From Coleofasciculus chthonoplastes F2-STO-03 (GTDB taxonomy: Bacteria > Cyanobacteriota > Cyanobacteriia > Cyanobacteriales > Coleofasciculaceae): 45,725 nucleotides of DNA. Shown here one piece after another: positions 4,391 to 31,578 of this stretch. Each line of letters opens with the position of its first letter. Position 1 is the first letter of the stretch. The position numbers were made by a program, and so were the translations under genes. The DNA is taken from NCBI GenBank assembly GCA_040222015.1, contig JAVJWO010000218.1, forward strand, positions 1-45,725. Direction: 5' to 3'. Below the pieces are notes generated by a model. It ran no database searches. It was not told the origin of the DNA and saw only the letters and a program-made list of their open reading frames with translations.

Positions 4391-5068
4391 TATTTACCTC
4401 TTTTTTTGTGCAAACTTTTGAACGTTAGACGTAGACCTGACTGACCATTCTTCCTTTTGGGAAATTTTGGTCAAAAGCCTAAGGTTTTATTGTTCCGGCT
4501 AAAAAATCGTAGTGTTTTCTTTTTACCTCAGACTTTTGACTCTAGTCATGGGTCTCTAGGAGGAACAGTAAGGTTTATCCTAACTAAATCTATTCCTTGC
4601 GGTCTATTTAGCCTGGACGTTTACTGCTCTCTCTAACTGTCTATCTATATCGTAACTCCATGGATATTAAATCAGCAAATTTTGTAGAAGTCAATCTACT
4701 GCTTTACAAATATTTTTAATGTCAAGATTGGTTGATTTTTCTAGAAACTGTGGGGAGAATACTCCCCAATTTCATCAGTTTGGTGTTACAATAGGATAAT
4801 ATTTAAAAAAAGAGATGATCGCCTAGAGAGTAAGCATAAGCACCTCATCATCAGTAAGGCAGAGGGCAGAATGTTTATTGGTCGTTTCAGGTATTCAATC
4901 TGTTCTGACCTTTAGGGCGACAGCTATCAATCAGGCGCAAGGCTTTCAGCATTGTGGCACAATTTTTGACCTGAAACTGCCACATCTGCATCAGACTGAA
5001 AAGCTATAATCTGAATGACGCAACCCTTCGACTTCGCTCAGGGTATCAGGAAGAGGAACCAAGGACGT

Positions 5069-6844
5069 ATGGCATGGACACCGGGACACCCGTTAAAAAA
5101 GCGCCCCTTTGTGGTGGATTGTGTCCTGGGAGAGGGCGGATTCGGAATCACCTACAAAGTCCATCATCAGTTCCTCGACCAGGATTTTGTGATTAAAACG
5201 CCCAACGCCCGTCTGATAAATGACCCCGATTATCAGAAGTATCTGAACCGCTTTATTAAAGAAGGACAGATAGTCGCTAAGATATGTCATGACCCCCATC
5301 CCCATATTGTCCGCGTGACGGATTTGTTTGAAGAGGCGGGGATTCACTGTCTGGTGATGGATTATGTGCCTGGGGAGAGTTTATGGAAATACGTGCAGAA
5401 TCAAGGCACGTTGTCAGAAGCCCAGGCGGTGCGATATATTCGCCAGATTGGGGATGCGCTGCGTGTGGTTCATCAAGCGGGATTGGTGCATCGGGATGCG
5501 ACACCCCTGAATATTATGGTGCGGAGTCCGGAAAAAGCGGTATTAATTGATTTTGGCATTGCCAAGGGATTAATCCCCACCACGAGTACAACCACGGATA
5601 AAGCCGGGAATCGGGGATTTGCCCCCTATGAACAGATGGTGCGGGGAAGTCGTAAGATTACGGTTGATGTGTATACCTTAGCGGCATCCTTATATTATGC
5701 GGTGACAGGTCAACGTCCGATGGATTCCTTTTCTCGCAAGTTAGATGATGCCGAATTAATACCGCCGCAACAGCTTATTTCTGGGTTAAGTGATGCCACA
5801 AACCAGGCTATTTTATCGGGAATGGCGCTAGAAGCCAAAAACCGCCCCCAATCAATTGAAGCGTGGTTAGCGTTATTAACCTTTGAACCGCCAATTATCC
5901 TGTCGGTGACATCTCCATCCGTTGAGAGTTCAGCCACGGTTCAGCCTGCCAAAACAGCAAAAACCCTACCCGTGTCGGCATTTAACTTTCAAGTGGTGAC
6001 GGTAGAGGTTAAACCGGGGGTGTTGGGGAAAGAAAGAAAACTAACGCTGAATCGTCGCCCCCATCAGGCGTACCATTACATAGAAACCCTTGGCGATGTG
6101 CCTCTGGAAATGGTGGCGATTCCGGAGGGTACATTCCAGATGGGTTCGCCAGAGACTGAGGAAAGACATGAGGATAATGAAAGTCCCCAGCATTGGGTGA
6201 CGATTAAACCCTTCTTCCTAGGGAAATACCCCATCACTCAGGCTCAATGGCAAGCCGTGGCTCATTTTCCGAAGGTTGAGCGAGAACTTGACCCTGACCC
6301 CTCTGAATTTAAAGGAGAAAACCGTCCTGTCGAGTGCGTATCATGGTATGATTGTGTGGAGTTTTGTGCGCGATTGTCACAGTACACAGGTTGGAACTAC
6401 CGACTTCCTAGCGAGGCGGAATGGGAATATGCCTGTCGTGCGAGAACAACAACACCGTTTCATTTTGGCGAGACGATTACCACCGATTTAGCCAACTATC
6501 ACGGTAAATATATTTATGGTGCAGGTGCGAAGGGTAAGTGTCGCGGGGAAACCACTCCAGTCGGAAGTTTTCAAGTCGCGAATGCCTTTGGCTTGTACGA
6601 CATGCATGGAAATGTGGGGGAATGGTGTCTTGACCAATGGCATGATAGTTATGAAGGTGCGCCGTCAGATGGTCAAGCTTGGATAATTAATGATGATGAT
6701 AATCATTCTCGGCTGTTGCGCGGTGGTCCGTGGAACTTCTATCCCAGGTACTGTCGTTGTGCCTATCGCTACTGGCGTACCCCAGCCTTCGGGAACTACA
6801 ACAGCGGGTTTCGGGTTGTCTGTGGTGCGGCGTGGACTCTTTAG
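5069..6844 (+). CDS. Ser/Thr kinase fused to an FGE-sulfatase (SUMF1/CLec-fold) domain; probable DGR target protein
   Basis: GEGGFG, VIK, HRD, DFG, APYE; C-terminal F.MGS, RLPSEAEWEYACRA, NAFGLYDMHGNV, RGG.W, GFRVVC. ATG 5069 preferred because the ORF-track extension from 5015 reads through a small repeat. Confidence 0.92.
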   Translation: MAWTPGHPLKKRPFVVDCVLGEGGFGITYKVHHQFLDQDFVIKTPNARLINDPDYQKYLNRFIKEGQIVAKICHDPHPHIVRVTDLFEEAGIHCLVMDYVPGESLWKYVQNQGTLSEAQAVRYIRQIGDALRVVHQAGLVHRDATPLNIMVRSPEKAVLIDFGIAKGLIPTTSTTTDKAGNRGFAPYEQMVRGSRKITVDVYTLAASLYYAVTGQRPMDSFSRKLDDAELIPPQQLISGLSDATNQAILSGMALEAKNRPQSIEAWLALLTFEPPIILSVTSPSVESSATVQPAKTAKTLPVSAFNFQVVTVEVKPGVLGKERKLTLNRRPHQAYHYIETLGDVPLEMVAIPEGTFQMGSPETEERHEDNESPQHWVTIKPFFLGKYPITQAQWQAVAHFPKVERELDPDPSEFKGENRPVECVSWYDCVEFCARLSQYTGWNYRLPSEAEWEYACRARTTTPFHFGETITTDLANYHGKYIYGAGAKGKCRGETTPVGSFQVANAFGLYDMHGNVGEWCLDQWHDSYEGAPSDGQAWIINDDDNHSRLLRGGPWNFYPRYCRCAYRYWRTPAFGNYNSGFRVVCGAAWTL

Positions 6845-6895
6845 CACTTGACACTTTTGCCCTTTTGCCCTCTGCCCTTTTTTCTTTTCCCTCTT

Positions 6896-6910
6896 CCCGC
6901 CTGCGGCGGG
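6896..6910 (+). other. GC hairpin 3' of the putative variable region (DGR homing hairpin and/or terminator)
   Basis: CCCGCC-TGC-GGCGGG, preceded by a pyrimidine tract and followed by TCGATTTTTTT. Confidence 0.65.
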
Positions 6911-7136
6911 TCGATTTTTTTCAACAGCTAAGTTCGTAGTTGCGCTTTAGCGCCATCAACGCTGGTATCGCTTACTACTAGCATGGTACAGATAAAATCG
7001 CGATATAGATATTACCATAAAATCGGGCGCACGTCAGATGTAGGTTGGGTAGAGCGTAAGCGAAACCCAACAGGTTCTATGGGGAGTTGGGTAAGTAGTC
7101 GGACTTTCATTAAAGTTAACGGTTGAGATTAGGCAA

Positions 7137-7264
7137 TAAGCTGTTTGGCATTTAAACCTTAATATCAATAATGGCGAAAGCCGTGTAGTGCGTTAAGCGA
7201 AGCCATGCCGCAGGCTTTGCATCTTGCTCGCTACTAATACCCCATTTAAATGCATGACAGCTTA
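7137..7264. mobile_element. MITE-like element, copy 1 (ends TAAGCTGT...ACAGCTTA)
   Basis: Terminal inverted repeats; related copies at 14931-15058 (inverted) and 41452-41562. Confidence 0.8.
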
Positions 7265-7326
7265 AACTAGAAAAACTCTGCCAGAAACCGGATTAAAAAC
7301 TACTTGGCTAAATCGAGGAAACCCCC

Positions 7327-7629
7327 ATGTCTAGTAACATCCAAATCCATCCCCTAATCACCACCAATAAACCGCAAATTCTAGCCATTTCTGCAAAGTA
7401 TGGAGCGTATAACATACGACTATTTGGTTCCTATGCTAGAGGGGAAGCAACAAACAATAGTGATATTGATTTTTTGATGGATATGGAAACAGGAAAAAGC
7501 TTATTGAATCGCATTGCCCTTAAACAAGAACTCGAAGACCTACTCGGTAAAAAAGTAGACATCGCCAAGCCAGAAAACCTGCATGAATCAATACAATCCC
7601 AAATCCTTAAAGAAGCTATTACTTTATGA
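7327..7629 (+). CDS. Minimal nucleotidyltransferase (MNT) antitoxin
   Basis: LFGSYARGEA...SDIDFL motif; 100 aa; ATGA overlap with a HEPN remnant. Confidence 0.9.
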   Translation: MSSNIQIHPLITTNKPQILAISAKYGAYNIRLFGSYARGEATNNSDIDFLMDMETGKSLLNRIALKQELEDLLGKKVDIAKPENLHESIQSQILKEAITL

Positions 7630-7763
7630 AAAATCAAGTTCTTTACCTAACCAATATCCAAGACTGTATTCAAGCCATTGAGAATTACACCCATGAAGGT
7701 AAACAAGCATTTTTTACCAATAAAATGATGCAAGATGCCGTGATTCGTAATTTGGATTTTTGA
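7626..7763 (+). pseudogene. Truncated HEPN/DUF86 toxin
   Basis: My translation MKNQVLYLTNIQDCIQAIENYTHEGKQAFFTNKMMQDAVIRNLDF* matches the DUF86 N-terminus and stops before the Rx4H catalytic motif. Confidence 0.8.
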
Positions 7764-29532: not shown

Positions 29533-31578
29533 TTAATTTTTGTAACGCTCAATTGTCGCCATGGCTTGATTTTTACCGCCATAGTAAGATTGGATAGTTT
29601 GAGCAATCTGAATCGCTCGTTCATCGTTCCCTGTAGCGACTAATCGACGTACAATGGCATCCAAGGCTTTGGCTTTTTGTTCGTAGTCTGTAATCGTTTT
29701 AGCCACCTGAATGGCTTGCTCATGCTCAGTAGGCGTGGTTAAATAGCGTGCGATCGCGTGTATAGTCTTACTCTGAATCGAGTCATCGGGGATACTGTGA
29801 GTCACTCTCAGAGCTTGGGTATACTCACCAGCATCAGTTAACTGGAGTGCGATCGCTTGGATAGTCTTACTCTGAATCGAGTCATGGGGGATACTGTAAG
29901 TCACGTTTAGGGCTTGGGTATACTCACCAGCATCAGTTAAGTTGAGTGCGATCGCTTGTATCTTTTCAATGATTGGTAAGGCTTGCTTAGACTTACTCGC
30001 CACCATTAACTCCGTTGTAATCATTCCCAAAGCCTTTACCTTAATCAAGTCATTTGTAATCGTTTCCGCAGTATCAATGGCTTGATTGTACTTACCCGCT
30101 TTCGCGTAATTAGCTGAAACATCTACTAACTTCCAATCTTCCCCCAGAAAAATTCCCCGATCATTTTCTCCATCAACACTTTCTGTACCCGGAGCGCATT
30201 GAAGCCTACCCTCTTCTACAATTGGTGCTGGAGGGCGATTAGTACCCTTATCTTTTGTCTCACACAAGATAGCTAATGTTGTCAATTCTCCTGTTGCTTC
30301 AACGCTACCCAAAAACACACCGCCCACATAACTATTTAAATCGGATTGGCGGGAAACGCTATAGTTAATCGAACTCAAAAGAGTTGCATAACTTGAATAG
30401 GTATAGTTTGTGGTTTCAGTGCTAATGCCTAGTCCCAGTTCACCAATATTATTAGTAAAATTACTTTCTTCTAAAAAATAAGCTTGCTGGGCGCGATTCA
30501 TTGAGCTAATATACTGCCTTGCTTCGGATTGCTTTGCTTTACTAGAACCACCAAAAGCCCAAAATAAACCAGGCATCAGGAAAATTAAGCCAATTGCAAT
30601 TAGTCCTAGCCAAGCCAAGCAGCCACAACCGTAACCACTTTTCGTATCCGATGAACGGTTTATTGATTGTCGCACAGGAATTTGAATTTGGTGATCAATA
30701 AAACAGGATTGCAGCGAAGAAAAAGCTTGACGTGCCGTACTCAACCGTCTTTCCGGTGCAGGTTGAATTAACTGCTCAATCCAGTTAGCAAAATTCGGAT
30801 TAATCCTGACTTTATCTTGAAACTTAATCCGCATTCGCTGCTGGGGTAATTGAGATGGCGGAATCCCTGTTAATAAATGAATTAAAGTCGCACCCAATGC
30901 ATATAAATCTGATGCAGGTACAGCTTTTCCCCATAACTGTTCGGGGGGTGCGTAACCACTGGTTCCCACTACTGTAAATGTAACACCTTCAGCTTTAGCT
31001 TTGTCTTGCACAGCACCAAAATCTACTAGATAAATTTGGTTATTTTCCCCCAAAATCAGATTACTCGGCTTAATATCACGATGAAGAATAGGTGGACTCA
31101 ATTCGTGTAAATCAATTAAAATATTGATCAAATCCTCAGCAAAATGACGCACCTGATTTTCGCTAAACCGTTTCCCTTGATTTAATAACTGCTTGAGAGA
31201 GTCACCGGGAATATAGTCTTGCACTAAAGCAAACCAAGGTAATTCGGTTACACTAGACTTATCACTATTTTCATTATCAATAGAAGAGTGTTCTAAACCC
31301 GCTTCCACATCATCTACTGAAAAATAATCCAGATACTTCGGAATGCGAGGATGGTTGAGATTCTTTAGAACTTGAGCCTCTCGTTGAAACAGCTTCAACT
31401 CATCCCATTGCATCTGGGGATTAAACATCAAAAATTTAACCACAACGGCTGTTGGTGGTGAGGCTTGAGTATCCATCGCTAACCAAGTTTGCCGCCCTGC
31501 ATTGTGTCCTAATTGTTTTTTTAGCTGATAGCGATCGCGTAAAACTTGTCCCGCACTTAACATAATTAATTCCTTCAA
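29533..31578 (-). CDS. Ser/Thr kinase - TM - type IV pilin-like (Pilin_GH) - TPR-like repeat fusion (array member 2)
   Basis: Kinase motifs, one TM, KAKQSEARQYISSMNRAQQAYFLE pilin-like helix, then 33-aa helical repeats. Confidence 0.88.
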   Translation of the reverse strand: MKELIMLSAGQVLRDRYQLKKQLGHNAGRQTWLAMDTQASPPTAVVVKFLMFNPQMQWDELKLFQREAQVLKNLNHPRIPKYLDYFSVDDVEAGLEHSSIDNENSDKSSVTELPWFALVQDYIPGDSLKQLLNQGKRFSENQVRHFAEDLINILIDLHELSPPILHRDIKPSNLILGENNQIYLVDFGAVQDKAKAEGVTFTVVGTSGYAPPEQLWGKAVPASDLYALGATLIHLLTGIPPSQLPQQRMRIKFQDKVRINPNFANWIEQLIQPAPERRLSTARQAFSSLQSCFIDHQIQIPVRQSINRSSDTKSGYGCGCLAWLGLIAIGLIFLMPGLFWAFGGSSKAKQSEARQYISSMNRAQQAYFLEESNFTNNIGELGLGISTETTNYTYSSYATLLSSINYSVSRQSDLNSYVGGVFLGSVEATGELTTLAILCETKDKGTNRPPAPIVEEGRLQCAPGTESVDGENDRGIFLGEDWKLVDVSANYAKAGKYNQAIDTAETITNDLIKVKALGMITTELMVASKSKQALPIIEKIQAIALNLTDAGEYTQALNVTYSIPHDSIQSKTIQAIALQLTDAGEYTQALRVTHSIPDDSIQSKTIHAIARYLTTPTEHEQAIQVAKTITDYEQKAKALDAIVRRLVATGNDERAIQIAQTIQSYYGGKNQAMATIERYKN

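Follow-up and report, generated by a model that had tools for sequence, protein, structure and literature searches.

The 3' end of a Ser/Thr kinase gene in the cyanobacterium Coleofasciculus chthonoplastes F2-STO-03 raises two questions: was it shaped by a diversity-generating retroelement (DGR), and is it still being rewritten? The gene lies in the stretch of DNA analyzed here (the window), the 45,725-nucleotide (nt) contig JAVJWO010000218.1, which is contig C218 of assembly GCA_040222015.1 (genome G000; 219 contigs, 7.72 Mb, estimated completeness 99.99%). An earlier note, made from the letters of the window alone, had proposed that the gene ends in a variable region (VR) on which a DGR located elsewhere in the genome acts in trans. 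We find that positions 6710-6834 are almost certainly a VR by origin. The assembly, in turn, keeps no complete or active DGR: it has no cognate template repeat (TR), no DGR-type reverse transcriptase (RT), and no intact Avd. The segment is likely an orphaned remote target, with its machinery lost from the genome and the tip that it encodes now frozen as ordinary coding sequence.

The proposal of a VR was based on the observation that the codons in question can all be derived from a hypothetical template by changes at adenines. It could be put to the test once a real TR was found. An exact scan of the GTDB species genomes with the 29-mer at 6806-6834 returned seven stretches, all VRs in Coleofasciculus and none of them a TR. 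The same scan of a metagenome collection returned two contigs (L072 and L074), each with a VR and TR pair 1710 nt apart. The TR of the live cassette in L072 (L072:3735-3859) aligns with the whole window VR and differs from it at 15 of 30 adenine sites, as opposed to 2 of 95 non-adenine sites (Fisher p = 1.8e-9), the latter being T>C changes at 6728 and 6763. Thus, the mismatches fall at TR adenines, as the earlier note had predicted, and its reconstructed 72-nt template equals the real TR at 70 of 72 positions when read off the alignment (the differences are GCC for GCT and AAC for ACC). The live cassette's own VR departs from its TR at 18/30 adenine and 0/95 other sites, and nine other close VRs from the same genus at 12-20 of 30 and 0-8 of 95. 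The bias is kept, less sharply, in three more diverged rows: G008a (21/30 vs 20/76), G002b (17/30 vs 16/94), and C52_40k/G003c (13/30 vs 5/95). In L072 and L074 the VR/TR homology ends at 6834, the sequences diverging after GCGTG.

Variation among species follows the same template. We aligned the window locus to six orthologous loci in five genomes of the genus and scored identity per bin. The gene body (5090-6590) is mostly 88-97% identical to the six orthologues in the bins that align, with non-homologous N-terminal stretches (34-70% identity) in two rows (G003a and G008a), and 6590-6703 is 94-96% identical. Identity is 53-81% across the VR core (6734-6806) and 100% at 6807-6844 in five of the six. 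We then compared the 124 columns of 6711-6834 in ten VRs of the genus with the TRs of G017, G015, and G060, which come from intact DGRs of other genera. Thirty columns hold at least three bases, and 26 of these are adenine in at least two of the three TRs; this is true of only 2 of the other 94 columns (p = 2e-20, which is indicative only since the rows are related). The variable sites are first and second codon positions of the segment, between conserved flanks. The T>C change at 6728 is private to the window, being absent from the nine other VRs of the genus and from all TRs, and it turns RGGSW into RGGPW (Ser to Pro) in a conserved FGE motif.

The VR occupies the place expected of a DGR target, stopping 10 nt ahead of the stop codon, inside an FGE domain at the 3' end of the gene (Table 1). 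Our coordinates agree with those read earlier from the letters: TGG at 6731-6733, 24 codons at 6734-6805, GGG TTT CGG at 6806-6814, and a TAG stop at 6842-6844. Translation probably begins at the ATG at 5069 (residue 19), judging from the orthologue on L072, a 591-aa protein that starts there; from residue 19 to 608 the two are 89.9% identical (89.7% in DNA). Pfam assigns residues 36-238 of the 609-aa protein to Pkinase and 365-602 to FGE-sulfatase. The best PDB match of the FGE part is PvdO (5hha; E=1.3e-37), which is no DGR target. It also matches Treponema denticola TvpA (2y3c; E=5.6e-21), a DGR variable protein, over query residues 111-253 including the VR-encoded tip. TvpA is thus a sequence-level homologue with the same FGE-type C-type-lectin (CLec) fold, but it is a lipoprotein without a kinase fusion. 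With the adenine-specific mismatch to a real TR, the claim of a DGR-type VR in a kinase/CLec (FGE) gene is borne out.

Table 1. Coordinates of the features discussed; positions are those of the window unless a contig is named.
Feature	Position	Strand	Remark
Ser/Thr kinase / FGE-sulfatase (C-type-lectin fold) gene	5015..6844	+	609 aa as longest open reading frame
Variable region (VR)	6710..6834	+	125 nt, gapless alignment to TR of live cassette in L072
Hypervariable core	6734..6804	+	codon positions 1-2 of AAC/AAT-type template codons
GC-rich invariant 3' end of VR, like an initiation of mutagenic homing (IMH) site	6806..6834	+	29-mer identical in VR and TR of L072 and L074
Conserved pyrimidine-rich tract, ~50 nt	6845..6895	+	between stop codon and hairpin
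6-bp all-GC hairpin with 3-nt loop	6896..6910	+	candidate DGR target-recognition hairpin and/or intrinsic terminator stem
Run of seven T, terminator-like tail	6915..6921	+	after hairpin
vWA-MoxR (VMAP) type neighbourhood	G000 C52:26300-40440 (L005:308-14437)		

Intact cassettes of this kind are found in relatives. On G017:C225 (L041) the order is FGE target, pyrimidine tract and hairpin, avd (115 aa), RT (352 aa, with LPIGNLTSQ...YVDD), and then the TR. A close orthologue of this RT is present in 3 of 52 genomes of the family (G017 itself at 100%, G015 and G060 at 77%), and in all three the mismatches between VR and TR fall at TR adenines; G030, from a different family of the same order, has one as well. 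The 49 family genomes without one include the unpublished genome G044. None of the nine Coleofasciculus genomes has a close orthologue, G000 holding only a relic. The live cassette on L072 has the order beta-glucosidase (minus strand), kinase-FGE gene, hairpin, bAvd (119 aa, 68.8 bits), RT (352 aa, RVT_1 at 78 bits), TR, and MFS gene. L074 likewise carries a kinase-FGE gene with 89.7% DNA identity to the window gene, together with bAvd and RVT_1. Plasmids of Nostoc, Anabaena sp. 90, Fischerella, Microcystis, and Acaryochloris encode RTs 67-73% identical to that of the live cassette, and the Acaryochloris RT has an annotated DGR Avd as a neighbor. Downstream of five TRs (L041:5257-5380, L044, L045, L042, and L075), about 100 nt are conserved across genera, reading ...CCAGAACTGGTGGATGGGA...GAGTCCAGACCTGTTCC...GATGTCGGTGACG..., possibly the part of the RNA from which cDNA synthesis is primed.

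We searched G000 itself for each part of such a cassette. Using blastn with window 6600-6960 (word size 7, E = 10, contig ends included), no non-coding TR was found in G000. Apart from a short repeat downstream of the hairpin, which matched many contigs, every match lay at the 3' end of another FGE gene, with three such matches each on C52 and C158 and a single one on C25. In all, G000 has nine FGE-domain genes. The VR-like ends of the three tandem genes at C158:16250-21673 and of the one at C25:15750-17507 are 64-77% identical to the window VR. DGR-type RTs are marked by the motif [ILV]GxxxSQ ... YxDD, and in a regular-expression scan no G000 frame joins the two halves in an RT context. There are four RVT_1 matches in G000, two on C16 and one each on C215 and C151. 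Two frames showed the group-II-like form QGxxxSP...YADD in the motif scan, that on C215 (759 aa) and one of those on C16 (542 aa); the scan picked up neither the other C16 frame (546 aa) nor C151. The C151 RT (384-452 aa), which is unrelated, was rejected as a DGR RT: it is without a QG/[ILV]GxxxS motif and adjoins helicase/exonuclease-like reading frames. A tblastn search of G000 with the G017 RT returned only residues 283-326, at C52:31466-31594, and the bAvd profile (PF22296) matched the relic on C52 at 26.5 bits, below the 40-bit cut-off, and C47 weakly at 21 bits. The claim that a DGR elsewhere in this genome drives the VR in trans is thus not supported, since no TR, DGR-type RT, or Avd was found in it beyond the C52 relic. 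The earlier note had looked on the absence of a TR and RT from the genome or its close relatives as telling against a DGR target; that absence holds for G000 and for the eight other representatives of the genus, and does not hold for the metagenomic relatives with the live cassette.

What is left of a DGR in G000 is a wreck at C52:30439-31600. It follows the closest paralogue of the window gene, a 546-aa open frame (C52:28651-30291) encoding a non-kinase FGE protein that is 82.6% identical in DNA over the FGE domain and 92-97% identical on both sides of the mismatched patch, through the 3' untranslated region and hairpin. Directly downstream of this paralogue is the start of avd (C52:30439-30621; residues 2-48 relative to an intact Avd, at 30445-30585). 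It is cut by a repeat resembling a miniature inverted-repeat transposable element (MITE), and the repeats there are similar to those at window 6921-6975 and 7029-7085. The RT fragment found by tblastn is joined straight to sequence that normally lies downstream of the TR, so the TR has been deleted; the relic lacks the stretch matching L041:5029-5327, which includes the TR. The breakpoints are the same in G002:C51 and G007:C44, from which we infer an old loss, the cassette having died before those species separated. Another FGE match in this neighborhood, C52:39552-40436, was considered as a hidden TR and ruled out, because it is the 3' end of a 290-aa open frame and has non-adenine bases at the variable sites.

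The setting of the wreck is of the MoxR-vWA type. The neighborhood starts with a MoxR AAA protein (310 aa) and vWA_CoxE (354 aa), continues with the FGE target (given there as 532 aa) and its wrecked DGR, and then has an EAD9/VMAP-M1/VMAP-C protein (453 aa), another MoxR AAA protein (335 aa), and FGE proteins of 1003 and 290 aa. The available text of Dore et al. 2024 (PMC10907252), on multicellular bacteria, describes degenerate DGR loci without machinery and ties cyanobacterial clade 5E to MoxR/vWA; the C52 paralogue is comparable in its MoxR AAA / vWA / FGE-target / VMAP setting beside a wrecked cassette, here cut by MITE-like repeats. It differs in that each class there, as far as that text goes, keeps one complete trans-capable locus, whereas the assembly of G000 has none, and in that the window gene is a kinase fusion outside any MoxR-vWA operon. 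Two RT C-terminal relics in another genus of the family (G052:C9:8807-8932 and G052:C89:19305-19430; residues 311-352, 74% identity, each with a stop) make cassette decay seem common. Elsewhere, on L037:9100-9380 (G007:C44:83100-83380), an FGE gene fragment has had its whole VR excised between two GGTGCG(G/C)CG repeats, joining '...TATGAAGGTGCG' to 'GCGTGGACTCCTTAG'.

The window locus appears never to have carried a cassette of its own. A cassette is lacking at all six window-type orthologous loci, in keeping with the earlier note's view of a remote target. Homology between the window and the live locus stops at 6921, just past the T run. The window and five orthologues (G006a, G005a, G007a, G003b, and G008a) share a downstream flank that is a dispersed repeat, and a sixth orthologous locus, G003a, has the flanks of the live locus. 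Of the two kinase-FGE genes in G003, one is at a window-type locus and the other (C152) at a live-type locus with the same beta-glucosidase neighbor, where about 1.7 kb of small genes has replaced the cassette. The replacement set comprises a 159-176-aa protein beginning MKH(T/S)QWLRLQ, XRE-type helix-turn-helix proteins, and a toxin-antitoxin-like pair. The same set stands where cassettes were lost at L071:900-2396 (G003:C152) and at L037:5100-7400 (G007:C44), which suggests that the lost cassettes were replaced by a mobile segment. A rearranged live-type locus nearby in G000 was ruled out. The beta-glucosidase neighbor is on C136 beside unrelated genes, and for the MFS neighbor C197 offers no more than a 29-31% homologue. 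G000 therefore lacks the live-type locus. From this comparison of loci, the cassette that served the window would have lain at the second kinase-FGE locus, which is no longer in G000.

These observations and published DGR biology suggest how the VR would have arisen. In ancestors of the strain, an avd-RT-TR cassette elsewhere in the genome would have had its TR copied into RNA, the RT would have reverse-transcribed that RNA with random misincorporation opposite adenines, and the cDNA would have replaced the VR. The GC-rich VR end (6806-6834) would have marked the target, probably together with the downstream pyrimidine tract and hairpin. The product would be a variable ligand-binding tip on the C-terminal FGE/C-type-lectin domain of a cytoplasmic Ser/Thr kinase, with the window locus a remote target throughout. 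The cassette beside the MoxR-vWA-associated paralogue is now reduced to avd residues 2-48 and RT residues 283-326 with the TR deleted, and a second, kinase-linked cassette, alive in the metagenome relatives, is absent from G000. That second cassette staying alive in at least some lineages would explain why VRs kept changing after the C52 cassette died.

Remote targets of this general kind have been described before. In its available text, Vallota-Eastman et al. 2020 (PMC7517822) reports Ser/Thr kinase-CLec targets and remote targets in cyanobacterial DGRs and only conjectures cis elements near 3' termini. The window resembles the systems described there in having a CLec/FGE domain that is joined to a Ser/Thr kinase domain and has the VR at its 3' end, a target away from the cassette, and, in its relatives, an RT of the same clade. 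It fails that paper's definition of a remote target, which demands identity to a TR in the same genome, because it has no TR or RT. The paper's genome taxonomy table includes C. chthonoplastes PCC 7420 and its CLec list eight Coleofasciculus proteins; in its main text Coleofasciculus, hairpins, and orphan or degenerate loci have zero occurrences each. A literature search found no paper on DGRs together with Coleofasciculus. DGRs are a known system, and the window VR adds one more case of an already known kind. What it offers is a VR signature, read from raw sequence, that is verifiable without a TR in the same genome, via a template in relatives, and a natural series within one DGR family of a live, a replaced, and a wrecked cassette and a leftover remote target. 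For annotation, the sensor tip of the kinase would be a formerly hypervariable, strain-specific ligand-binding surface.

The region after the stop codon has its own conservation. Among 43 distinct downstream sequences, 38 following VR-like ends and 5 following TRs, the same pyrimidine tract was seen behind VR-bearing FGE genes in many genera and not behind TRs. A strict script, which asked for a GC-rich stem of 5 bp or more lying 48-56 nt past the stop codon, found hairpins in 18/38 VR rows and 0/5 TR rows. By eye there are at least three more, in L075 (with a T-G pair), L013 (perfect, the script having given a longer hairpin elsewhere), and L062 (imperfect). The stem is unchanged within Coleofasciculus and varies between genera (CCCGCC, TCGCGC, TTCCGCC, TTGGGCA, CTCGCC), and loops vary even within Coleofasciculus (TGC, GCA, GTA, ACA). 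Covariation was scored on 18 rows picked for a pyrimidine tract and visible hairpin, a choice that inflates the paired fraction: 86.8% of hairpin cells pair, compared with 29-55% when the partner is slid. Five of the six pairs show two-sided changes, and 0 of 500 shuffles reached the covariation score. The window stem is CCCGCC/GGCGGG with loop TGC, followed by TCGA and seven T, exactly as first described, and compensatory changes across genera uphold the claim that a structured hairpin follows the VR. In some orthologues the loop at window 6902-6904 is TGC and in others GCA; GCA is the exact reverse complement of TGC, which points to a possible inversion of the entire palindrome.

Whether this hairpin is only a rho-independent terminator, with no part in DGR targeting, bears on how the VR was reached; we consider that a serious possibility, though a somewhat doubtful one. 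An all-GC stem with a T run scores as terminator-like, the T run is kept together with the stem in other genera, and the whole 120-nt 3' region folds no better than shuffles (z = -0.99). The comparison with recognition of the BPP-1 type, as set out in the accessible text of Guo et al. 2011 (PMC3240598), cuts both ways. In both, the VR 3' end is GC-rich and common to the TR, and the VR but not the TR is followed by a GC-rich inverted repeat, whose stem structure is kept while its sequence varies. The elements required for homing there have stems of 7-10 bp and 4-nt GRNA loops, 4-34 bp from the VR; here the stem is 6-7 bp, the 3-nt loop is not conserved (GAA and CAA occur in addition to the four loops above), and between the VR end and the hairpin are 61 nt that include a pyrimidine tract, with a T run after the stem. 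Against a terminator alone stand the fixed offset from the stop (48-56 nt), a tract conserved across genera only behind VR-bearing FGE genes, and the covariation in five of six pairs; the same paper also suggests that DGRs target terminator-like stem-loops. In addition, the close paralogue C52:39552-40436, without tract and hairpin, has a VR identical in G000 and G003, a weak hint only, given that its region is 97.9% identical overall between the species. These points do not separate a targeting role from a terminator role, and the hairpin probably still serves as the terminator of the kinase gene. The fixed-offset pyrimidine tract with its 3-nt-loop hairpin is a candidate cis element marking remote targets in cyanobacterial DGRs.

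The present state of the VR can be read in several ways. That no retroelement was ever involved is extremely improbable. Diversifying selection on ligand-contact codons would act at first and second codon positions, where the variable sites are, and the nine FGE paralogues could have been donors for gene conversion; but the changes coincide precisely with the adenines of real TRs, third and all non-adenine positions are fixed across species that differ by ~3-12% elsewhere, the VRs are all unique and not mosaics of paralogues, and a relic avd and RT adjoin the closest paralogue. Our preferred reading, an orphaned target that has been frozen, must instead be set against continued activity. We regard the VR as likely inactive at present: no TR, RT, or intact Avd was found in a genome estimated to be 99.99% complete, and the private T>C at 6728, which homing would erase, argues against any rewriting after it arose. 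Several observations weigh on the other side. We infer inactivity rather than observe it, the best share of words among 23 sequencing runs being 0.28, and the VR is still an intact open frame. With 219 contigs, a cassette on an unassembled replicon is possible, RTs of this clade often being plasmid-borne. At its non-adenine sites the VR is 2/95 off the metagenome TR, as against a 10.3% difference between the gene and its orthologue (binomial p = 0.002), which means either that rewriting last took place recently on the scale of species divergence or that strong constraint acts on these sites. Such points also favor a functional avd-RT-TR cassette, on a plasmid or in an assembly gap, that still rewrites 6710-6834 in trans: the assembly is a draft, close relatives have live cassettes with a TR identical at 93/95 non-adenine sites, RTs of the clade sit on plasmids in other cyanobacteria, the VR frame, IMH-like end, and hairpin are all intact, and trans diversification of remote or incomplete loci is reported for Thiohalocapsa in the available text of PMC10907252. 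We nevertheless think ongoing rewriting unlikely, given the estimated completeness, the lack of any TR-like sequence in the assembly, contig ends included, or of a DGR-type RT or avd beyond the relic, the absence of a close RT orthologue from all eight other representatives of the genus, and the private change at 6728 that has not been overwritten. A kindred and similarly improbable reading, perhaps slightly more so, is that Coleofasciculus targets outlive their diversifier and undergo rewriting each time the cell contains a compatible cassette, which this draft may simply lack; the window VR would then be dormant rather than dead. Several genes would then keep a landing pad (GC-rich VR end, ~50-nt tract, 3-nt-loop hairpin, fixed offset), while the avd-RT-TR core would be an accessory element, often lost and perhaps regained, plasmid-borne in relatives. 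If true, this would explain why VRs beside a long-dead cassette still differ at nearly every adenine site and why the window VR agrees more closely with a foreign TR at its non-adenine sites than the gene does with its orthologue.

Metagenome reads offered a further view of the locus. Contigs from runs X1, X2, X3, and X20 (85% likeness) are short and come from relatives, with depth dips and breaks at 6732-6785 inside the VR. The few relatives' contigs that cross 6732-6785 do so with 16-25 differing letters, which has no bearing on activity in this strain. An Rfam search of 6500-7700 gave only a chance RNase P match (14.9 bits vs a gathering score of 100). Dispersed short repeats start right after the T run, at window 6921-6975 and 7029-7085; they have 8 and 16 blastn-short matches in G000, respectively, and in four metagenome runs the summed contig depth over them is very high. 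Farther downstream of the kinase gene, window 7327-7629 encodes a 100-aa nucleotidyltransferase (NTP_transf_2 / Polbeta) of the MNT-half kind found in toxin-antitoxin pairs.

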